From NCBI GenBank assembly GCA_020632095.1, contig JACKGF010000001.1:134549-198548 (forward strand): a stretch of DNA of 64,000 nucleotides. Reading direction: 5' to 3'. Made by a program: the position numbers and the translations under genes. The DNA comes from Candidatus Nomurabacteria bacterium. Its GTDB lineage: Bacteria > Patescibacteriota > Minisyncoccia > Phycocordibacterales > UBA918. The notes beneath the pieces were generated by a model. That model saw only the letters and a program-made list of their open reading frames with translations, was not told the origin of the DNA and made no database searches. This document shows, piece after piece, positions 19,275 through 54,346 of the stretch; within the stretch, counting starts at the first letter, position 1, and each line of letters begins with the position of its first letter.

Positions 19275-19686
19275 ACGTGACCAAATTGAATCAATATTAA
19301 AGATAAATGGCGTTGCACCAAGTTCACCTGACGAACAGATTCGTTCGGTTTTATTAAGTGCACGTTATAGTAAGGATGAAGTAGATACTGCTATTATGGT
19401 CTTACGTGAGAATACTAAGACAAACCAGACCAGGGTAGACGGGCTACATAAAGTATTTCGCTCTAGTGAGGCTTTAAACTCTGAAGAGATCTCGCAGCTT
19501 CTTGGAATTGATGTTGATATTGATAATATTACTTCAACAAAAGTTAAGGGTAGAGGGGTTTATGGCTGGCAATATGTTGTTGTTTGGGTTATGTCGGTAG
19601 TAATTTCAGTTGTCGGTATTTTGATGTACATGTATTTATATAGAGTTGGGGTATTTCACCCAAGCGTTGGTTTGATACATCCTTAA
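19267..19686 (+). CDS. small protein with C-terminal TM helix, unknown function
   Basis: ATG 19267 overlaps the upstream stop (ATGATTAA), which suggests translational coupling. C-terminal hydrophobic helix VVVWVMSVVISVVGILMYMYLY. The ORF track start 19237 lies inside the upstream gene. Confidence 0.4.
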   Translation: MIKRDQIESILKINGVAPSSPDEQIRSVLLSARYSKDEVDTAIMVLRENTKTNQTRVDGLHKVFRSSEALNSEEISQLLGIDVDIDNITSTKVKGRGVYGWQYVVVWVMSVVISVVGILMYMYLYRVGVFHPSVGLIHP

Positions 19687-20813
19687 TGAAACTTCAAAAA
19701 TTATTTACTATTTTTCTACTAATAATATTAGTAGAAATGATTTCTAATATTAATGCTGAATTTCCAATTCAGGATATTTCATATGGTCAAATTTCAGAAT
19801 TAAACTTAGTTGAGTTAGTAAAAAAACCAATGACTATTCCTCTGGCTGATCTAACTAAAATCGACAGTAGGCTTGACTCAATTGTATTTGTTGGAGATGT
19901 GCTTTTGGCTAGAAACGTTGAAGTATTAATGGAAAGATATGACGATTCATATCCTTACAAGGGATTGAATTTTAATGAATTATCAACCAAACCACTAGTG
20001 ATTGGAAATTTTGAGTCATCAATTCCTATTGTTCATAAGCCAACCGAAGCGTTGCAAATGAGTTTTTCTACTAATAGTAAATATCTGACGGCAGCTAGAG
20101 CAGCTGGCTTTTCATATTTTTCATTAGCTAATAATCATAGTTTTGATTCTGGAAGTAATGGATATTCTAACTCCGTCGATAAACTAATTCAAAATAACCT
20201 AATACCATTAGGTCACCCTAATGAATTTAACAAGGATTCCGTCTCAGTAATTGAGGTCAATAATATGAAAGTAGCTTTGATTGCTTTGCAAGCAATTGAG
20301 TTTCATTTTGATGATAATGATATTAGTGATGTACTAGATTATGCAAGTTCAATCAGTGATTTCCAGGTTGTTTATGTGCATTGGGGAATTGAGTATGAAC
20401 AAAAACACAGTAAAAAGCAACGACAATTAGCTGAAAAATTTGTCAAATATGGAGCTGATTTAGTGATTGGTCATCATCCTCATGTAGTACAAGATATAGA
20501 TTTGATTGATGGTGTGCCAGTTTTTTATTCTTTAGGTAACTATATATTTGATCAATATTTTTCAACTCTAGTACAACAAGGGTTAATTTTGCAATTAACC
20601 CTTGGCAGAGAATCTTTTGTCGATGTGATTCCTGTTACTAGTGAAGGCACGTTATCACAACCTAGGCGCATGAACGTGTTACAGCAAGCAGTGTTTTTAC
20701 GAAACCTAACCCAAATAAGTAACCCTTTGCTAAAGAGTGATATTGAACAGGGAACGATACCTCTTAATTTCAAGGTTGCAACTTCGTCAAAAGTCGCTAT
20801 GATAACTAAGTAA
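19686..20813 (+). CDS. CapA/PgsA-family metallophosphoesterase (poly-gamma-glutamate capsule biosynthesis protein CapA-like)
   Basis: 375 aa. N-terminal signal/anchor. Calcineurin-like phosphoesterase motifs in CapA order: VFVGDVLLARNV, ANNHSFDSG, VVYVHWGIEY, DLVIGHHPHVVQ, YSLGNYIFDQ. Start overlaps the previous stop (TAATG). Confidence 0.75.
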   Translation: MKLQKLFTIFLLIILVEMISNINAEFPIQDISYGQISELNLVELVKKPMTIPLADLTKIDSRLDSIVFVGDVLLARNVEVLMERYDDSYPYKGLNFNELSTKPLVIGNFESSIPIVHKPTEALQMSFSTNSKYLTAARAAGFSYFSLANNHSFDSGSNGYSNSVDKLIQNNLIPLGHPNEFNKDSVSVIEVNNMKVALIALQAIEFHFDDNDISDVLDYASSISDFQVVYVHWGIEYEQKHSKKQRQLAEKFVKYGADLVIGHHPHVVQDIDLIDGVPVFYSLGNYIFDQYFSTLVQQGLILQLTLGRESFVDVIPVTSEGTLSQPRRMNVLQQAVFLRNLTQISNPLLKSDIEQGTIPLNFKVATSSKVAMITK

Positions 20814-21406: not shown

Positions 21407-21435
21407 ACTGACCGTTGCGGTCAGTTTGTTTATTT
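21407..21435 (+). terminator. rho-independent terminator after FKBP gene
   Basis: ACTGACC-gttgc-GGTCAGT followed by TTGTTTATTT. This also argues that the tgt start is ATG 21442 rather than TTG 21415. Confidence 0.5.
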
Positions 21436-21441
21436 AAAAAC

Positions 21442-22644
21442 ATGCAAAAATCACCTGTTACATTTGAAATTATAAAACGTGTCCCTGGTACGCTAGCTCG
21501 GGTCGGGGTAATTCATACACCTCACGGTGATATTGAAACACCAGCTTTTGTGGTGGTAGGTACCAAAGGTACTGTAAAAAGTATCAAACCTGAGGATATG
21601 CGCGACTATGTCGGCAATCAGGTTGCTCTAGCTAATACCTACCATTTATTTCTGCAACCCGGTGACGATGTGGTAAAAGAGGCCGGTGGACTGCACAAGT
21701 TTTCCAACTGGGACTTACCAACTATTACCGATAGCGGTGGTTTTCAAGTTTTTTCTCTAGGGGCGGCTTTTGGGAAGGGTGTCACGAAATTCGCTAAGGG
21801 GGATATGGTTGAAAACAGCGAAAAATCTGGATTGAATGTCTACTCCAAGAAACTGGCTGAAGACCACGGAAAATTGTGTGTAATAGATGAAGAAGGGGTG
21901 ACTTTTACCTCACATATCGACGGCTCCATGCACCGGTTTACCGCTGAACGCTCAATTGATATTCAGCATAATATCGGGGCTGATATTATTATCGCTTTTG
22001 ATGAATGTACTAGTCCGACGGCTGATTATAAGTACCAAAAGGAAGCCATGGAGCGCACTCATCGCTGGGCTAAGCGCAGTATCATGGCTCATAAGCAAAA
22101 TTATCAAGCCTTAAAAAAACAAGGTCTATATGGTGTAGTGCAAGGTGGACGACATTTAGATTTGCGAGCTGAGAGCGCTACAGCGCTCTCAGCGATGGAT
22201 TTTGACGGATTTGGTATTGGAGGCTCATTTAGTAAGGAAGACTTAGGTGAGGCCTTGCGGGTGGTAAACGAAATTTTGCCCGAAGACAAGCCTCGCCACT
22301 TACTTGGTATTGGTGAGCCAGAAGATATTATCGAAGGGGTTTCGCTTGGCTGTGACACCTTTGACTGCGTAGCTCCCACTCGGATTGCGCGCACTGGTAC
22401 TATTTATGAGCAAACCAACGATGGTCACCGGCGGACAAATCTGCTTAATACCAAATATCAAAGAGACTTTTCCAAGCCTGATGAATCTTGTGACTGTTAT
22501 GTTTGCACCAATTACACCAAGGCCTATTTAGCTCATCTTTTCCGCAGTGGCGAAATGCTCGGCCCACACCTAGCGTCACTGCATAACCTGTACTACATCG
22601 TAAATTTTACTAAGAAGTTACGTGAGGAGATGTTGCTAAGCTAA
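21442..22644 (+). CDS. tgt: queuine tRNA-ribosyltransferase
   Basis: N-terminus FEIIKRVPGTLARVGVIHTPHGDIETPAFVVVGTKGTVK, LGIGEPEDI, and Zn-binding CDCYVCTNYTKAYLAHL are diagnostic of bacterial Tgt. Confidence 0.9.
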   Translation: MQKSPVTFEIIKRVPGTLARVGVIHTPHGDIETPAFVVVGTKGTVKSIKPEDMRDYVGNQVALANTYHLFLQPGDDVVKEAGGLHKFSNWDLPTITDSGGFQVFSLGAAFGKGVTKFAKGDMVENSEKSGLNVYSKKLAEDHGKLCVIDEEGVTFTSHIDGSMHRFTAERSIDIQHNIGADIIIAFDECTSPTADYKYQKEAMERTHRWAKRSIMAHKQNYQALKKQGLYGVVQGGRHLDLRAESATALSAMDFDGFGIGGSFSKEDLGEALRVVNEILPEDKPRHLLGIGEPEDIIEGVSLGCDTFDCVAPTRIARTGTIYEQTNDGHRRTNLLNTKYQRDFSKPDESCDCYVCTNYTKAYLAHLFRSGEMLGPHLASLHNLYYIVNFTKKLREEMLLS

Positions 22645-22687
22645 TTATATACATTGTAGAAACTCGTGCTCTTGATTAAATTGACAT

Positions 22688-23176
22688 GTGTGTTATATTG
22701 TGGCTTGGAAAGAAGTATCTTTGATTAACAAACAAGTGAAAGGACACACCTTGTCAAATCTTGTAGATGCAGTACATCACTCAGCGGAGCATCCATATTG
22801 CCCGAGCTGTAACACACAACCAGCTTCGCGGGCTCCACGTCCGTCCCAGTCTCACGACCCAGATGCGGTTCCCCCGGAGCTAGCACGTCTCTTGCGACAA
22901 GGTGGCTATGTCAATGATGGTGAGTCCATTGAGCAAGCCGCATTTCGTGTTCTGAGCGAGAGGCTCAATCAGGAGAAGTCGCTACTGAGAAAACTTGAAG
23001 GTCTGGGCTGTTGTCTGCCTGAAGGTACCTCAGTCAGCACGTTCGCTATCGGGTTTCTGAAGCGGGCGGTCAGAATTATTGAGTTGAAGGGAGAACTCTT
23101 TTTTAGGCTTCCCAAGAGGGCACCTCTTTACTTCCGCTTGCAAAGGACTGAGGAAGAGAAGGATAGTACATGCTAG
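22688..23176 (+). CDS. hypothetical protein in GC-rich island (start uncertain)
   Basis: 162-aa ORF. GC rises sharply from ~38% to ~55% at ~22.74 kb. No recognisable motif. Pro/Arg/Ser-rich N-terminal part, helical C-terminal part. Confidence 0.4.
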   Translation: MCYIVAWKEVSLINKQVKGHTLSNLVDAVHHSAEHPYCPSCNTQPASRAPRPSQSHDPDAVPPELARLLRQGGYVNDGESIEQAAFRVLSERLNQEKSLLRKLEGLGCCLPEGTSVSTFAIGFLKRAVRIIELKGELFFRLPKRAPLYFRLQRTEEEKDSTC

Positions 23177-23195
23177 CTTGCACTGTCTCAGGTGC

Positions 23196-23229
23196 GAAAA
23201 ACCGGCCACGTGACCGGTTTTTCTTTTTT
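23196..23229 (+). terminator. rho-independent terminator
   Basis: AAAACCGG-ccacgtga-CCGGTTTT followed by TCTTTTTT. Confidence 0.7.
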
Positions 23230-23278
23230 AAAAATTATCTAAGTATACATTTTGTTAATAGATATACATACAGATCAA

Positions 23279-23308
23279 TTGACAATCTTGTTAAAAAAAT
23301 ACTATAGT
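23279..23308 (+). promoter_or_regulatory. sigma70-like promoter (TTGACA-18 nt-TATAGT) with strong RBS AGGAGGTG before ATG 23342
   Basis: TTGACA at 23279-84, TATAGT at 23303-08, AGGAGGTG 6 nt upstream of the start codon. Confidence 0.45.
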
Positions 23309-23341
23309 AAGGTAATCTAAACCAAGCACAGGAGGTGTAAG

Positions 23342-24046
23342 ATGAGCTGCTTAAGCAAGAGTGAGCTCGAAGCACTCGAAAGAGAGCTGAACAATCACGA
23401 CTCCGAAGTGCTGGGCAGACTTAGGGAGTTTTTTCTAAGACACGATATATTTCCACCTGATTTCGAGGAGTTGTGTGATAGGCTTGGTGTAACAGGTCGC
23501 CATCAACGCCTTGGAATTTTGATAGCCTACATGATTGCTTTCTGGGGTCATGAAGGTCAGGAGCGTCGTGATAAATCCAAGTACATCACTCATCCGCTCG
23601 GAGCCCTGCTTATTTACGCAGAAACTGCAGGAGTTGGCAGACTAGACGTAGCATTGATCATTTTGATTCTTATCCACGATGTAGTCGAGGATACGAAAGT
23701 TACGCTTCAAATGATTTCTGCTTGTCTCGGGGAGGAATGTTCGCTTGATTTGTCCTCTTTATCCAAGGAGCACGGTCAGAAAGGAGATGACTACCTAATT
23801 GCCTACTTGCTTGGAATAATTGCTCGGGGACCAGGTGTAATTTTGGTCAAGCTTTGTGATCGGGCACACAATCTTGAAACTCTCCAACCCTTCACCGAGG
23901 ATAAACGTAAAGAAAAAATCCTCGAAACCCAGACGTTCCACATGCTGATGTTGCTACCAGCTTTACGTAGCTACGGTGGTGATTACATCAGAATGGCAGA
24001 TGAGCTGGAACAAAGGATGAATGAGGCGATCGCTCAGTATCAATAA
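23342..24046 (+). CDS. RelA/SpoT-family HD-domain small alarmone hydrolase (SAH, Mesh1-like (p)ppGpp/(p)ppApp pyrophosphohydrolase)
   Basis: 234 aa. HD-domain motifs in SpoT order: ITHPLGAL (His), LILIHDVVEDT (HD), VKLCDRAHNLETL (compare KLADRLHNMRTL of RelA/SpoT). No synthetase domain. Lies in the GC-rich (~50%) island. Confidence 0.7.
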   Translation: MSCLSKSELEALERELNNHDSEVLGRLREFFLRHDIFPPDFEELCDRLGVTGRHQRLGILIAYMIAFWGHEGQERRDKSKYITHPLGALLIYAETAGVGRLDVALIILILIHDVVEDTKVTLQMISACLGEECSLDLSSLSKEHGQKGDDYLIAYLLGIIARGPGVILVKLCDRAHNLETLQPFTEDKRKEKILETQTFHMLMLLPALRSYGGDYIRMADELEQRMNEAIAQYQ

Positions 24047-24065
24047 CAGATTTTAGTTTGCTTTC

Positions 24066-24094
24066 GACGGCCCACCCTGGGCCTGTCTTTTTTT
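24066..24094 (+). terminator. rho-independent terminator after SAH gene
   Basis: GGCCCA-ccc-TGGGCC followed by TGTCTTTTTTT. Confidence 0.65.
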
Positions 24095-24122
24095 ATTACC
24101 CTTTGCAGGGTATAGTACTAGG

Positions 24123-26153
24123 GTGAAATTTGAGATATCGACAGATAAAACTCCAGCTGGTGATCAGCCAACGGCCATCAAAACTCTAGTTGATGGTATT
24201 AAGGCTGGCCTATCGTCTCAGACGTTGATGGGGGTGACTGGGTCGGGTAAGACATTTACGGTGGCCAACGTTATTCAACAAATTCAAAAGCCGACCTTGG
24301 TGATTGCACATAATAAAACTCTGGCGGCTCAGCTGGCGCAAGAGTACCGAGATTTTTTTCCTAATAACGCTGTTCACTACTTTGTTTCATACTACGATTA
24401 CTACCAGCCTGAAGCCTATATGCCGACTTCAGATACTTATATTGAGAAGGAAGCGCAAATTAATGAAGAGATTGATCGTTTGCGTCACGCATCAACCCAA
24501 GCTTTGCTGACTCGCAAAGATGTCATTATTGTGGCTTCAGTATCATGTATTTATGGCTTAGGTTCTCCGATTGAGTACCAAAAGGTACACAAGAAAATAG
24601 AGCGAGGTTACCAGACTAATCGGGCAGAAATGTTGCGTACCCTAGTCGACATGTACTTCGAGCGTACTAACGCTGACTTAAATCCGGGTCACTTTCGAGC
24701 GGTCGGTAATACGATTGAAATAATGCCGACCAACGAGCGGGTTATTTATCGATTAAGTTTTGGTGGTGACACTGTCTCACATATCACAAAAATCGACGGT
24801 ATTACTAGAGCTATTATTGAAGAGCCTGAAGTATTTTTCTTATTTCCAGCCAAGCACTTTGTAACTCCTGAAGCGGAAAGGAAAGTGGCAATAGAAGATA
24901 TTAAGGCTGAACTAGACGAACAGCTTAAGAAATTTAAGAAAGAAGGTAAGTTATTGGAGACAGAACGTCTTAAGCGACGAACAGATCATGATTTGGCCTT
25001 GATGCGTGAAATTGGCTACTGTAACGGGATTGAAAACTATTCACGACACTTTGACCGCCGTAAGCCTGGTGAAGCGCCCTACACTCTAATGTCGTATTTT
25101 CCTCACACAGCAGATGGTAAGCCAGACTTTTTAACTATAATCGACGAGTCTCACGTTACTATCCCACAGCTTAACGGAATGTACGCTGGCGATCGCTCAC
25201 GAAAAAATACTTTAGTAGAACACGGTTTTCGCCTACCAAGTGCGATTGATAATCGACCACTAAAGTTTGATGAATTTGAAGCTACTGTTGGTCAACAAAT
25301 ATACACCACTGCTACCCCCGGAAAATACGAATTTGCCAAGCTGGCTGAGACTGGTCAAAAACCAGTCGAACAAATTATTCGTCCAACTGGACTAGTTGAC
25401 CCAGTTATTGATGTTAGACCGATTGTGGAGGAAGGTAAGTATCCAGGGCAGGTGAAGGATTTTATAGAAGAGGCCAACAAAGTCATCAAAACAGGTGGTC
25501 GAGTGCTGGTAACTACCTTGACCAAAAAAATGGCCGAAGATTTAGCTGAATTTTTGGCAGACAAGAAGATAAACACAAAATATATTCACAGTGACATTGT
25601 CACGATGGAGCGCATCGAAATTTTAACTGATTTTAGAAAAGGGAAGTTTGATTGTTTGGTTGGTGTCAACTTGCTACGTGAAGGATTGGATCTACCCGAG
25701 GTTGAGCTGGTTGCTATTCTGGATGCCGATAAGGCTGGCTTTTTGCGTAGTGAAACCGCCTTGATTCAGACTATCGGGCGGGCGGCACGTAATGTCAATG
25801 GTCGAGTTGTGTTGTATGCAGATGAGATTACAGCTGCTCTCGAGTATGCTATTGGCGAAACGAATCGTCGTCGTGAAAAGCAATTGGCCTATAATAAAAA
25901 ACATAACATAACCCCCAAAACCATTATTAAAGAAATTAAGTCAATTGCTGATCAGATGCGTTCTGCGCACGATGAGACTGTCGACACTTTACTTAAGATT
26001 GATATGCAGCTTTTTAAAAAGAATCCAGTAAAAGTACTTAAGGAAAAACGACGTCAAATGGAAAGTGCTGTTGCGATTTTAGATTTTGAAACAGCCGCAA
26101 TTTTAAGAGATGAGATAAAATATTTGGAAGAATTCGTCGAGAAAGAAAAATAA
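24123..26153 (+). CDS. uvrB: excinuclease ABC subunit B (GTG start)
   Basis: 676 aa. N-terminal PAGDQPTAIKTLVDG, Walker A GVTGSGKTFTVANVIQ, helicase motifs, and a C-terminal UVR domain (AILDFETAAILRDEIKYLEE). Confidence 0.9.
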   Translation: MKFEISTDKTPAGDQPTAIKTLVDGIKAGLSSQTLMGVTGSGKTFTVANVIQQIQKPTLVIAHNKTLAAQLAQEYRDFFPNNAVHYFVSYYDYYQPEAYMPTSDTYIEKEAQINEEIDRLRHASTQALLTRKDVIIVASVSCIYGLGSPIEYQKVHKKIERGYQTNRAEMLRTLVDMYFERTNADLNPGHFRAVGNTIEIMPTNERVIYRLSFGGDTVSHITKIDGITRAIIEEPEVFFLFPAKHFVTPEAERKVAIEDIKAELDEQLKKFKKEGKLLETERLKRRTDHDLALMREIGYCNGIENYSRHFDRRKPGEAPYTLMSYFPHTADGKPDFLTIIDESHVTIPQLNGMYAGDRSRKNTLVEHGFRLPSAIDNRPLKFDEFEATVGQQIYTTATPGKYEFAKLAETGQKPVEQIIRPTGLVDPVIDVRPIVEEGKYPGQVKDFIEEANKVIKTGGRVLVTTLTKKMAEDLAEFLADKKINTKYIHSDIVTMERIEILTDFRKGKFDCLVGVNLLREGLDLPEVELVAILDADKAGFLRSETALIQTIGRAARNVNGRVVLYADEITAALEYAIGETNRRREKQLAYNKKHNITPKTIIKEIKSIADQMRSAHDETVDTLLKIDMQLFKKNPVKVLKEKRRQMESAVAILDFETAAILRDEIKYLEEFVEKEK

Positions 26154-40751: not shown

Positions 40752-40824
40752 GGGCTCGTAGCTCAGCTGGTAGAGCGCCTCATTTGCACTGAGGAGGTAG
40801 CGGGTTCAAGTCCTGTCGAGTCCA
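40752..40824 (+). tRNA. tRNA-Ala (anticodon TGC), CCA not encoded
   Basis: 73-nt cloverleaf folded by hand: acceptor GGGCUCG/CGAGUCC with G3:U70 (Ala identity), D-arm GCUC-AGCUGGUA-GAGC, anticodon stem CCUCA/UGAGG, loop UUUGCAC, T-arm GCGGG-UUCAAGU-CCUGU, discriminator A. Confidence 0.85.
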
Positions 40825-41020
40825 CAAAAACCAAAACCAAAGCGGATGCTTTGGTTTTGTTGTTTTTGTGAGACATCGACAGGACTTGAAAGACGGAGGC
40901 TGCGAAGCCAGTTTTGAGGTACGAGAAACTGTAGCCGAGTCGGGGTAGCGAACACTTAGTAGATTATGAGCGAAGCGAAGTAATATACTTAGTGATTCGT
41001 GACCAAGTCCTGTCGAGTCC
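40825..41020 (+). other. tRNA-Ala(TGC) 3'-linked element: terminator hairpin, inverted copy of the tRNA 3' end, conserved ~70-nt block, and direct repeat of the tRNA 3' end
   Basis: Hairpin CCAAAGC-ggat-GCTTTGG + T-run (40837-40868). CATCGACAGGACTTGAA (40874-90) is the reverse complement of tRNA nt 55-71. The block 40935-41003 is ~90% identical to 41551-41616. AAGTCCTGTCGAGTCC at 41005-41020 exactly repeats tRNA nt 57-72 (40808-40823). Confidence 0.55.
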
Positions 41021-41387: not shown

Positions 41388-41460
41388 GGGCCCTTAGCTC
41401 ATCCGGTAGAGCGCTTCCATGGCATGGAAGAGGCGAGCGGTTCAAGTCCGCTAGGGTCCA
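41388..41460 (+). tRNA. tRNA-Ala (anticodon GGC), CCA not encoded
   Basis: 73-nt cloverleaf: acceptor GGGCCCU/AGGGUCC with G3:U70, anticodon stem CUUCC/GGAAG, loop AUGGCAU, T-arm AGCGG-UUCAAGU-CCGCU, discriminator A. Confidence 0.85.
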
Positions 41461-41630
41461 CAAGCGTTAAGAAATCCTGCCCTGCGGCAGGATTTTAGCT
41501 TGTGGAAGGCGGAGCGTTGTGAGGAGCGCGCTTCCTAGCGCGACGAGCCGCGAGCCGGGGTCGAGAACACTTAGTAGATTACGAGCGTAAGCGAAGTAAT
41601 ATACTTAGTGATTCGTGTCCACAAGCGTTA
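41461..41630 (+). other. tRNA-Ala(GGC) 3'-linked element, same organisation as 40825..41020
   Basis: Hairpin AATCCTGCC-ctgc-GGCAGGATT + TTTT (41473-97). CTTGTGGA (41499-41506) is an inverted copy of the tRNA 3' end/downstream TCCACAAG. The block 41551-41616 (CGAGCCGGGGTCGAGAACACTTAGTAGATTACGAGCGTAAGCGAAGTAATATACTTAGTGATTCGTG) is shared with element 1. GTCCACAAGCGTTA at 41617-30 is a direct repeat of 41456-69. A perfect 18-bp palindrome GTAAACAACCACCGGCCC/GGGCCGGTGGTTGTTTAC (shared central C) follows at 41631-41665. Confidence 0.55.
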
Positions 41631-52505: not shown

Positions 52506-52859
52506 GTGCAGTTACTTCGCACTATATGTTACAATCTTGCACATATGTTTGGAAAAATAAAAAATTTCGCGATGAAGAAGATTCTTCAATCGCAGATGAA
52601 GAATGTGCCAGAAGACCAGCAGAAGATGATTATGGAGATGTTGGAAAAAGACCCAGCCCTTTTCGAGAAGATTGCTAAGGAAATGCAAGCAGAGCTAAAA
52701 GCCAACGGCAACAACCAAATGACGGCCGCTACTAAAGTTTTGCCAAAGTATCAAAAGGAAATCATGGCGGTCATGAGTCCAGAAATGAAAGAACAGTTGA
52801 TGAAGATGCAGATGGGAGCCGCTGGACAATTTAACCCCAACGGAACGATTAGGAGATAA
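52506..52859 (+). CDS. small Met/Lys/Gln-rich helical hypothetical protein
   Basis: 117-aa ORF. Chosen over the overlapping 52484..52678 frame for its protein-like amphipathic composition. Start may be an internal Met. Confidence 0.3.
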   Translation: MQLLRTICYNLAHMFGKIKNFAMKKILQSQMKNVPEDQQKMIMEMLEKDPALFEKIAKEMQAELKANGNNQMTAATKVLPKYQKEIMAVMSPEMKEQLMKMQMGAAGQFNPNGTIRR

Positions 52860-52911: not shown

Positions 52912-53517
52912 TTGTTGTATACAATAGGGTATATGCAACAACCTAAAAATATTGTCGTAATTTGTGGTCACCCTGACCCTGATACCTTTACTGGTGCAAT
53001 TCTTGACCATTATCAAGTAGCCGCTGAGGACGCTGGACATCACGTCGTACGCTTTAATCTCGGCCATATGAATTTTGATCCAATTCTACACAAGGGTTAC
53101 AAAGAAATTCAACAACTTGAACCCGACTTAGTAGCTCTCCAAGACGCGATTCGTGAGGCTGATCATGTAGTGATTGGTTATCCAAACTGGTGGTGTACCA
53201 TGCCAGCTATACTCAAGGGTCTGTTTGACCGTATCTGGCTACCTGGTTTTGCCTTTAATTTCAATAAAGAAACTAAAAAAATTGAGCAACATCTGAAAGG
53301 GAAGACGGCTCGGGTTTATGTACTATCTGGCTCACACAGTCCATTCAAAACTTGGTGGAAATTTGGAGACTACACTAATGAAATTCAATACGGAATTCTA
53401 GAATTTGCTGGTATTAGCACCCAAGTCACTACCTTTGGCCCTTGCGAGAGAATTGAAGATTCTGTCCGAAATGGCTGGATAAAAGAAGTTGAATCTCACG
53501 GCAAACTCGCAAAGTAG
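52912..53517 (+). CDS. flavodoxin-like-fold NAD(P)H-dependent oxidoreductase (NQO/MdaB/azoreductase-type)
   Basis: 201 aa. N-terminal IVVICGHPDPDTFTGAIL (FMN-binding loop) and central VIGYPNWWCTMPAILKGLFDR. Confidence 0.65.
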   Translation: MLYTIGYMQQPKNIVVICGHPDPDTFTGAILDHYQVAAEDAGHHVVRFNLGHMNFDPILHKGYKEIQQLEPDLVALQDAIREADHVVIGYPNWWCTMPAILKGLFDRIWLPGFAFNFNKETKKIEQHLKGKTARVYVLSGSHSPFKTWWKFGDYTNEIQYGILEFAGISTQVTTFGPCERIEDSVRNGWIKEVESHGKLAK

Positions 53518-53592: not shown

Positions 53593-54084
53593 TTGACCGT
53601 TAGGTCGAAGGAGAAAGAGATGTTTTCAAGACTTGTAATTGTAGTTTTGCTGGCCCTAGGCTTGTCGGCCTGTGGCGGTATAAGAGTAACCCATCAGACC
53701 GCCCAAGCAGACTCTGTAGCATTTCGAATTACTGCCAACGAGGTTCTCGGTAACGCGAACTCTGTTGTCGGATGTTCGTCTCAAACGGTCGCTGTCGATC
53801 CCGACATCAATGTCAGCTCCTCAGGAGCAGTCAAAGATGTGAACGGCAAAATCGAGTACGCCATGCAAGGAAACTCGAATCGGGCTCACAAATGCCGCAC
53901 GTTCGAGCAAATCCAAGCGGCGGAAGCAGGCTATCCGGTTCCGCCAGTCAAAACTGTGCCTCCGGTAAGTCTGGAGCGCAGACACGTGAAGCCTCAACGG
54001 CACTACCCAAAAAGAAGCTGGGCGTACCCGCCGTCAATGTATTCGAAGGAGTATCAATCCTATGGGAGACCTAGGCCTTGGTAG
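53593..54084 (+). CDS. lipoprotein in GC-rich island
   Basis: Lipobox LALGLSAC-GG (probable start at MFSRLV, 53620). GC ~55% against a ~38% background. Confidence 0.45.
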   Translation: MTVRSKEKEMFSRLVIVVLLALGLSACGGIRVTHQTAQADSVAFRITANEVLGNANSVVGCSSQTVAVDPDINVSSSGAVKDVNGKIEYAMQGNSNRAHKCRTFEQIQAAEAGYPVPPVKTVPPVSLERRHVKPQRHYPKRSWAYPPSMYSKEYQSYGRPRPW

Positions 54085-54346
54085 TAAATCTCTTCTCTTG
54101 TGCGCACTGGTCATAACACTGACCGGTTGCGCCAGCGGAGGAGGTCACTTCCATAGTGACATCGGCCCACTCGCAAGAGCTGCTTGCGAGTGGAAATCAG
54201 AAAGGATACAAGAACACCAGTGTCCACCTGGCACGACCGAAGTTAGGGTCAGAGCCAAGATGGAAACGTTCCCAACTAGCTCAGGATTTCAAAGGACTAG
54301 TTGCGATTTTAAAACGATATGCAGAAGAAATAGAAGAAGGAGATAA
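54062..54346 (+). CDS. second putative lipoprotein in GC-rich island (frame uncertain)
   Basis: Lipobox LLLCALVITLTGC-ASGG. Competes with the overlapping frame 54156..54350. Arg-rich C-terminus. Confidence 0.3.
   Translation: MGDLGLGSKSLLLCALVITLTGCASGGGHFHSDIGPLARAACEWKSERIQEHQCPPGTTEVRVRAKMETFPTSSGFQRTSCDFKTICRRNRRRR

Follow-up and report, generated by a model that had tools for sequence, protein, structure and literature searches.

Stand-alone small alarmone hydrolases (SAHs) have been solved structurally from Pseudomonas aeruginosa (PaSAH; 6yvc, 6z3o), from Corynebacterium glutamicum (RelH; 7qod) and from metazoans (MESH1; 3nr1, 5vxa), and 11 named SAH subfamilies (PbcSpo, PaSpo, Mesh1 and others) were reportedly distinguished by Jimmy et al. 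in 2020. Solved structures are also available for the long Rel/SpoT proteins, among them RelSeq (1vj7), the Rel proteins of M. tuberculosis (5xnx) and T. thermophilus (6s2v) and the SpoT of A. baumannii (7qpr). The (p)ppApp hydrolase Aph1 of Bacteroides caccae (7smg) is an example of a stand-alone HD enzyme able to protect against (p)ppApp-producing toxins. SAH antitoxins pair with toxic small alarmone synthetases (SASs) in conserved bicistronic loci of type IV (toxSAS), and phages carry SAHs as well (PMC7229694). Here, a further stand-alone SAH is described from a 64,000-nucleotide stretch of Candidatus Nomurabacteria bacterium (GCA_020632095.1, contig JACKGF010000001.1, positions 134,549 to 198,548), the whole of which is called the window below. 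The gene lies between tgt and uvrB, next to an orphan open reading frame (ORF) for 162 aa, ORF162. The sequence comparisons suggest, with moderate confidence, that the native SAH of the clade was replaced in this lineage by a foreign cassette (xenologous replacement), with the orphan as a hitchhiker. The locus is composed as follows.

21415..22644, + strand: tgt, encoding queuine tRNA-ribosyltransferase; borders the variable slot on the left (Pfam TGT, 9.7e-129).
22645..24085, + strand: variable cassette (1.44 kb), with no BLASTN homology in relatives that have the same tgt and uvrB flanks.
22688..23176, + strand: ORF162, a GC-rich orphan open frame of 162 aa counted from GTG (GC 0.50).
23342..24046, + strand: SAH gene, encoding a single RelA/SpoT homologue (RSH) hydrolase domain of 234 aa (Pfam HD_4, TIGR00691 and fold).
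24123..26153, + strand: uvrB, right flank (Pfam UvrB domains).

As judged from its sequence and modelled fold, the product of 23342–24046 is a genuine single-domain SAH of the RelA/SpoT family and a well-supported new member of that known family; the assignment follows from RSH hydrolase matches in sequence and fold together with the lack of a synthetase domain. Pfam HD_4 (PF13328) was matched over residues 69–197 with 32.6 bits (cutoff 27.2), and TIGR00691 was matched (9e-19) over profile positions 1–138 of 687 only. HD_4 was the sole Pfam match, and no synthetase, TGS or ACT domain was found in the protein. Likewise, no synthetase-like ORF was found in any frame of the 64-kb window, where synthetase-containing queries matched the HD part only. 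The best solved relatives by sequence were the hydrolase domains of Rel/SpoT (5xnx, 2.3e-14), MESH1 and small alarmone hydrolases. An AlphaFold (AF2) model built from a 20-sequence alignment reached a mean predicted local distance difference test score (pLDDT) of 86.5 and a predicted TM-score (pTM) of 0.83; an N-terminal helical extension of about 30–60 aa is present, and residues 1–40 of the model are of low confidence (pLDDT 52–69). When this model was compared with the PDB by Foldseek, the best 50 matches were all RSH hydrolases of the Rel, SpoT, SAH, MESH1 and Aph1 folds, including Rel of T. thermophilus, S. aureus and S. equisimilis, full-length SpoT, the P. aeruginosa SAH, RelH and Aph1. 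The original prediction, which had read the gene as a stand-alone RelA/SpoT-type hydrolase with SpoT-type HD motifs and no synthetase domain, was borne out, the best sequence and fold matches being exclusively alarmone hydrolases, with no non-alarmone HD family among them.

The active site is intact, with the motifs HP, HD..ED and DRxHN in place. Residues R75, H84, H112, D113, E116, D117, D173, R174 and N177 were invariant in two alignments, one of metagenomic homologues and one of positional counterparts from related genomes, and H176 was fully conserved in one of them and occurred in at least 90% of the sequences in the other; the invariant set includes the metal ligands, the HD and ED dyads, the DRxHN motif and the Arg of the RxxG/Y motif. 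Because of this intact active site, the enzyme would be expected to act on (p)ppGpp and/or (p)ppApp, cleaving off the 3'-diphosphate in a Mn2+-dependent manner. The gene is under purifying selection, with a ratio of non-synonymous to synonymous rates (omega) of 0.10 (28 synonymous and 12 non-synonymous changes) against L001, a metagenomic contig that stands for the sole further lineage in which this allele occurs (the proteins are 95% identical). Among the matches listed for GTDB species genomes and JGI metagenomes, the relatives of the protein were at most 41% identical, were driven by the LIHDVVED motif and came mostly from Gemmatimonadota, Longimicrobiales, Zixibacteria and Gammaproteobacteria. 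No match was found in PADLOC, and those in PHROGs were to generic phosphohydrolase (HD) families only. A literature search on SAHs, ppGpp or alarmone metabolism in bacteria of the Candidate Phyla Radiation (CPR), or Patescibacteria, returned nothing relevant. In NCBI the protein (MCA9356961.1 / MCB9813890.1) bears the product name 'bifunctional (p)ppGpp synthetase/guanosine-3',5'-bis(diphosphate) 3'-pyrophosphohydrolase', in which 'bifunctional' is a misnomer, since the protein stops after the hydrolase domain and has no synthetase domain.

Like the solved SAHs, the window protein consists of a single hydrolase domain with an all-helical HD fold and the same metal-binding and catalytic residues, and lacks synthetase, TGS and ACT domains; TM-scores normalised to the target were 0.84 for PaSAH, 0.77 for MESH1 and 0.67–0.70 for RelH. 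It differs from them in sequence, with 17–22% identity, and in the additional N-terminal helical extension. By sequence it was nearer to the hydrolase domains of the long Rel/SpoT proteins (25–27% identity in structural alignments), which gave the best sequence and fold matches and with which the motifs RxxxxxYxxHP, HDxxED and DRxHN align residue by residue, although the window protein, unlike these, terminates after the hydrolase domain, at 234 aa. Identity to metagenomic RSH fragments was higher still (31–37%). Aph1 belongs to the same fold class (TM-score normalised to the target of 0.75–0.77) and was a weaker match than Rel, SpoT and PaSAH. With toxSAS-SAH modules such as FaRel-ATfaRel and with phage SAHs (PMC7229694), the window SAH shares its stand-alone form, its atypical composition and its apparent exchange among lineages. 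In contrast to the toxSAS-SAH modules, no SAS or toxSAS gene lies next to it or elsewhere in the 64-kb window, the two genes do not form a bicistronic unit, and the neighbouring ORF is an orphan that is missing from other SAH-bearing lineages. In contrast to the phage-encoded SAHs, it has no flanking phage genes and no relatives in IMG/VR.

The genomic position of the gene was compared among relatives by anchoring on Tgt homologues 85–91% identical to that of the window, and the tgt-uvrB interval was read in nine lineages, as follows; L001 derives from SRR19984972, and L002 and L167 from WANG18-1 metagenome samples.

L166, L168/169 and L177: SAH-like gene immediately after tgt.
L167: divergent SAH-like gene (250 aa).
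L170-173: AT-rich spacer of 480 bp, then an SAH gene.
L176: SAH gene, then a 69-aa ORF and a gene for a type IV pilin-like (N_methyl) protein (L176 5492-6203).
L163-165: gene for a DUF6941 protein and a 103-aa orphan ORF instead of an SAH gene (L163 6211-6907).
L175 (GCA_020632035.1): empty, with a 52-bp spacer (L175 4704-4755).
Window, L001, L002 and L174: ORF162 and an SAH gene.

An SAH gene was thus found between tgt and uvrB in seven of the nine lineages, six of which lack ORF162. Its presence in seven of nine indicates that an SAH in the slot is the ancestral or common state of the clade, and its retention indicates that SAH activity matters to these bacteria. The proteins themselves are poorly conserved: the slot SAHs are mutually 25–47% identical (27–47% among the relatives' own positional SAHs), and the window SAH is 25–32% identical to its positional counterparts, one of which gave no full-length alignment. 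Among the same lineages, identity was 85–91% for TGT and 79–88% for UvrB, and identity to the window proteins was 57–73% for FKBP, 40–65% for the response regulator and 40–48% for PGA_cap. Nucleotide homology (BLASTN) to L163, L166-168 and L170 ends at 22614–22644 and returns at 24083–24128. Since the homology with relatives outside the closest lineages breaks at the tgt stop codon, the ORF162 block is regarded as lineage-specific. The expectation of a two-gene island inserted between an otherwise adjacent tgt and uvrB was therefore half right: ORF162 is confined to this lineage, but an SAH is the usual occupant of the slot.

The allele in the window does not appear to be orthologous to that usual occupant. 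Its scores were 70–82 bits with canonical metagenomic RSH hydrolase domains and 33–44 bits with its positional counterparts. A neighbour-joining tree (195 columns, 200 bootstraps) placed the six other positional SAHs in a clade with 93–97% bootstrap support that excluded the window and L001 alleles, and the window SAH grouped weakly (58%) with a metagenomic protein (P0019). Synonymous codon usage was also atypical for both cassette genes (z = −2.55 and GC content at third codon positions, GC3, of 0.47 for ORF162; z = −2.1 and GC3 of 0.455 for the SAH gene), which are within the four most atypical of the 45 ORFs (mean GC3 = 0.333, sd 0.066), so that the codon-usage comparison proposed with the original prediction revealed non-uniform usage. 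A third line of evidence came from synonymous divergence (dS) against L001, which varies along the locus.

Last 132 nt of ORF162: dS 0.07.
SAH gene, by thirds: dS 0.58, 0.04 and 0.25.
uvrB, nt 1-720: dS 0.12-0.45.
uvrB, nt 721-1680: dS 1.2-1.6.
Response regulator gene: dS saturated.

Because dS is much lower there, the cassette and the 5' part of uvrB appear to share a far more recent ancestry with L001 than the genomic background does. The uvrB gene as a whole (compared with L001 1079-3121) is a recombination mosaic, with dS also of 0.31 at nt 1681-1920 and of 1.3 at the 3' end, and the UvrB protein is 97% identical to that of L001 despite this mosaic.

The dS mosaic and the atypical codon usage together favour import of a foreign-type SAH cassette. 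The window allele would have come from a different branch of the family and displaced the native gene by recombination within the conserved flanking genes tgt and uvrB. Homologous recombination in these flanks would afterwards have carried the cassette from one lineage to another. The cassette would hold two independent transcription units, one for the SAH and one for the upstream orphan ORF, and ORF162 would have come along as a hitchhiker of the foreign segment, neither needed for SAH function nor acting as a toxin partner. We infer the direction and the mechanism of transfer from these patterns, and xenologous replacement of the SAH of the clade by a foreign cassette with an orphan hitchhiker is held to be rather probable. 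Horizontal acquisition, as originally proposed, is supported for the allele (non-orthologous, with atypical codons and a dS mosaic), but not for the slot, which is itself ancestral, as the SAH genes of the relatives attest.

The arrangement of the cassette suggests that the two genes are expressed separately. The following signals were predicted.

22672..22699, + strand: promoter-like site of the orphan ORF, TTGATT-16-TATATT with an upstream TG (9/12 matches, extended -10; predicted).
23196..23229, + strand: terminator-like palindrome and T-run at the putative end of the orphan transcription unit (hairpin 23196-23223, then a T-run).
23279..23308, + strand: sigma-70-type promoter-like site of the hydrolase gene, TTGACA-18-TATAGT (11/12 matches).
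23331..23338, + strand: Shine-Dalgarno sequence AGGAGGTG, ending shortly before ATG 23342 (spacing of 5 nt reported).
24069..24094, + strand: terminator-like hairpin and T-run downstream of the hydrolase gene (hairpin 24069-24083, then a T-run).

The promoter, the ribosome-binding site of the hydrolase gene and the pair of strong terminators in the original prediction were all recovered at these positions, as were the housekeeping flanks tgt and uvrB. The first promoter-like site would imply a transcription start near 22706. The lone stem mismatch of the hairpin within 23196–23229 is restored to pairing in L001, and the SAH genes of the relatives are also preceded by -35/-10 arrangements directly after tgt. 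Since a terminator and then a promoter lie between them, ORF162 and the SAH gene are taken as separate transcription units, each of which would be expressed from its own predicted signals.

The GC-rich island proposed for this region proved to be shorter than had been claimed. Against a window GC of 0.40 (sd 0.047 per 200 nt), values of 0.50–0.56 are confined to 22700–23100, within ORF162 (0.50 as a whole), whereas the hydrolase gene (0.457) resembles tgt (0.447; uvrB, 0.418). The island is accordingly about 0.45 kb long and not 1.35 kb, and of the two cassette genes only ORF162 deviates in bulk GC. No second copy of the GC-rich block was found in the 64-kb window. Another GC-rich island was observed at 53593–54346 (GC 0.53–0.56 versus 0.40), with two orphan ORFs of 163 and 94 aa that carry lipoprotein-like signal sequences (…LSACGG and …LTGCASGG), neither with a Pfam match; ORF 53593-54084 has the most atypical codon usage of the window (z about −3.7). 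No sequence similarity was found between the ORF162 block and this island (53.6–54.3 kb). Close by, ORF 52506-52859 (117 aa, GC3 0.53, third most atypical of the 45, no Pfam match) adjoins a flavodoxin-like/FMN reductase gene (52912-53517).

The gene order around the cassette is AI-2E transporter, orf149, PGA_cap, FKBP, tgt, cassette, uvrB and response regulator. The window Tgt has an exact counterpart (100% identity) among the NCBI proteins of Candidatus Nomurabacteria, encoded on a 997-kb contig, and is 85–91% identical across the relatives. The mechanical ORF of tgt opens at TTG 21415 (409 aa) and the database proteins open at ATG 21442 (400 aa); the latter start is favoured, since the homologues measure 396–421 aa (mostly 399–403) and the identical NCBI protein 400 aa. 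The PGA_cap-family gene (19686-20813), upstream of FKBP and tgt, is another variable gene within the otherwise syntenic block, absent from L166, L168 and L175 and 40–48% identical elsewhere.

ORF162 is more difficult to interpret. The GTG at 22688 lacks a ribosome-binding site and precedes the predicted transcription start; on sequence grounds TTG 22751, with AAGGA at 22740-22744 (6 nt upstream), is the more plausible start, giving 141 aa, and was used by one gene caller. The open frame of 163 codons exceeds chance length (P = 0.0044 in 5000 dinucleotide shuffles) and shows a coding-type periodicity (GC1 > GC3 > GC2, by codon position). It is intact in five variants (96–99% identity), and its tail on L001 is open through to the identical stop. 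Over its last 45 codons ORF162 differs from L001 by 2 synonymous and 7 non-synonymous substitutions (omega = 1.0), a pattern with a P of about 0.004 under SAH-like constraint in a binomial estimate; against L174-type variants, about 5 synonymous and 6 non-synonymous changes were counted (omega about 0.35). No match to ORF162 was found in Pfam, NCBIfam, PADLOC or PHROGs, no relative in IMG/VR, and no match to its DNA in the GenBank phage genomes of INPHARED. A word-indexed search of 5.8e9 proteins and an exhaustive HMMER search of 1.84e9 representatives returned near-identical copies only, plus artefacts, so that ORF162 is found in the closest relatives only. Its single-sequence AF2 model reached a pLDDT of 40.9, with no confident fold. 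The claim that the 162-aa protein has no recognisable fold or domain thus held in profile searches and modelling, but a role as partner of the hydrolase found no support.

Several candidate relationships of ORF162 were rejected. A match to polyubiquitin was spurious and inflated by repeats. A 50-aa 'homologue' (P0141) is a fragment from the error-rich contig L174 of the same species, as indicated by the indels and shattered gene calls of that contig. This contig (ENA ERZ1714332 contig_1812; 77.7 kb) contains about 1 indel per 40–45 nt, which are probably uncorrected long-read assembly errors. An origin of ORF162 as a decayed native SAH was likewise discarded, as a profile of the six positional SAHs gave at most 0.1 bits in all six frames, compared with 64.8 bits for the window SAH as control.

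ORF162 probably encodes an orphan protein, young or under weak constraint, and hitchhiked with the foreign segment, its coding status being deduced from the features above. The best-surviving alternative is that it is a spurious or decaying frame on imported DNA, so that the SAH gene is the sole functional gene of the cassette and ORF162 is possibly non-functional passenger DNA that travelled with it. The omega of 1.0 over the nine substitutions against L001, the P of about 0.004 under SAH-level constraint, the orphan status and the low AF2 confidence all point that way. In two assemblies, moreover, Tgt and the SAH bear consecutive NCBI accessions, which suggests that the NCBI annotation pipeline (PGAP) calls no gene between them, so that ORF162 apparently stands unannotated there. 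On the other hand, the frame is intact in five variants and ends at the same stop in L001, its length exceeds chance, a plausible Shine-Dalgarno sequence with a TTG start is accompanied by a promoter and a terminator, and omega is about 0.35 against the L174-type variants. This alternative is considered possible, though doubtful.

A further alternative is vertical inheritance, in which the SAH would be the native, fast-evolving positional gene and only the ORF162 segment of about 0.6 kb would have been inserted in its promoter region. It would agree with the slot SAHs of seven of the nine lineages, each with a similar promoter of its own directly after tgt, with the mutual divergence of the positional SAHs (27–47%) and with the tgt-like GC of the SAH gene. 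An 8-bp direct repeat, AATTGACA, at 22679 and 23277 also brackets a 590-bp segment, as expected of an insertion with target duplication; the repeat overlaps the -35 boxes and may have arisen by chance. No terminal inverted repeats were found around this segment, and a model of it as a miniature inverted-repeat transposable element (MITE) or insertion sequence (IS) was rejected for that reason and because the direct repeat is not significant alone. Vertical inheritance is at odds with the supported clade of six positional SAHs that leaves out the window allele, with the closeness of this allele to canonical RSH hydrolase domains, with its atypical synonymous codon usage and with a dS that is low in the SAH gene while the flanks are saturated. 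Overall it is judged unlikely.

Several points nevertheless weigh against xenologous replacement. The distance tree comprised 195 columns of very divergent sequences, and long-branch effects could have misplaced the window allele. No gene of the neighbourhood evolves faster than the SAH in any of the lineages (25–47% identity), and for this reason vertical inheritance with extreme divergence is conceivable. The L001 lineage is represented by one short metagenomic contig, in which a chimeric assembly of strains might imitate the mosaic. No donor, integrase, transposase or other mobility gene, and no clear insertion scars, were found at the cassette. As regards the hitchhiker, ORF162 has an omega of about 0.35–1, no homologues and no confident fold, and, being apparently unannotated by NCBI, may not be a functional gene at all.

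The remaining alternatives fare worse. A structured non-coding RNA gene at 22700–23230, with the ORF as incidental, would account for a local GC peak with promoter-like and terminator-like sites (RNAs being GC-rich in AT-rich genomes), for a GTG 22688 without ribosome-binding site and for an omega of about 1 in the 3' 135 nt of ORF162 and its lack of protein homologues. However, no Rfam match was found at the gathering threshold over the whole window or at E ≤ 10 locally, save terminator look-alikes; no RNase P RNA, transfer-messenger RNA, signal recognition particle RNA, 6S RNA or large non-coding RNA was found at the GC-rich block, where ARAGORN also detected nothing. The folding energy compared with shuffles was unremarkable (z = −1.25 overall and −1.8 to +1.2 in 150-nt windows), compensatory changes were not evident, and the open frame beyond chance length and its codon periodicity speak for coding; the RNA gene is therefore considered very unlikely. 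As a separate observation, two tRNA-Ala genes (40752-40825 and 41388-41461, anticodons TGC and GGC, about 560 bp apart) were the sole Rfam or ARAGORN matches in the window.

A type IV toxin-antitoxin or similar conflict module, in which ORF162 would be a new toxin or trigger involving an alarmone-like nucleotide that the SAH neutralises, could draw on the SAHs known as antitoxins of toxSAS and carried by phages (PMC7229694) and on two compositionally atypical, co-travelling ORFs, but is the least credible of all, as ORF162 has no RelA_SpoT synthetase or other domain and shows little or no purifying selection, a terminator followed by the SAH gene's own promoter separates the two genes, six lineages have a slot SAH without ORF162, and neither protein matches PADLOC. 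The toxSAS-antitoxin role raised by the original prediction is accordingly not supported, in view of the missing synthetase in ORF162 and in the window, the separate transcription units and the six SAH lineages without ORF162, and its suggestion of a phage-host conflict setting found no phage context in the tgt and uvrB flanks, INPHARED or IMG/VR. The broader notion of a mobile two-gene conflict module with a new orphan effector or trigger erased by the SAH, or of a rapidly swapped SAH that gives synthetase-less CPR bacteria immunity to (p)ppApp/(p)ppGpp-producing toxins of hosts, competitors or phage-defence systems, is given a slight chance.

Overall, the cassette combines an SAH that is well supported but unsurprising with an orphan ORF that resists characterisation, and it is not a toxSAS module. 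The public annotation of the SAH should read hydrolase only. The comparison reveals a clade of ultra-small CPR bacteria (genome of about 1 Mb) in which a stand-alone alarmone hydrolase is retained at a constant chromosomal position. The turnover of this slot is unusually fast, with SAH alleles 25–47% identical where the tgt genes are about 90% identical, and the slot has seen, at a minimum, an apparent xenologous replacement, a loss and a substitution by unrelated genes. The SAH may balance an endogenous small synthetase or remove foreign alarmones, depending on the rest of the genome. If these genomes lack a (p)ppGpp synthetase, the SAH would degrade foreign alarmones or another 3'-pyrophosphorylated nucleotide, which, if true, would link episymbiotic life, interbacterial toxins and alarmone signalling.

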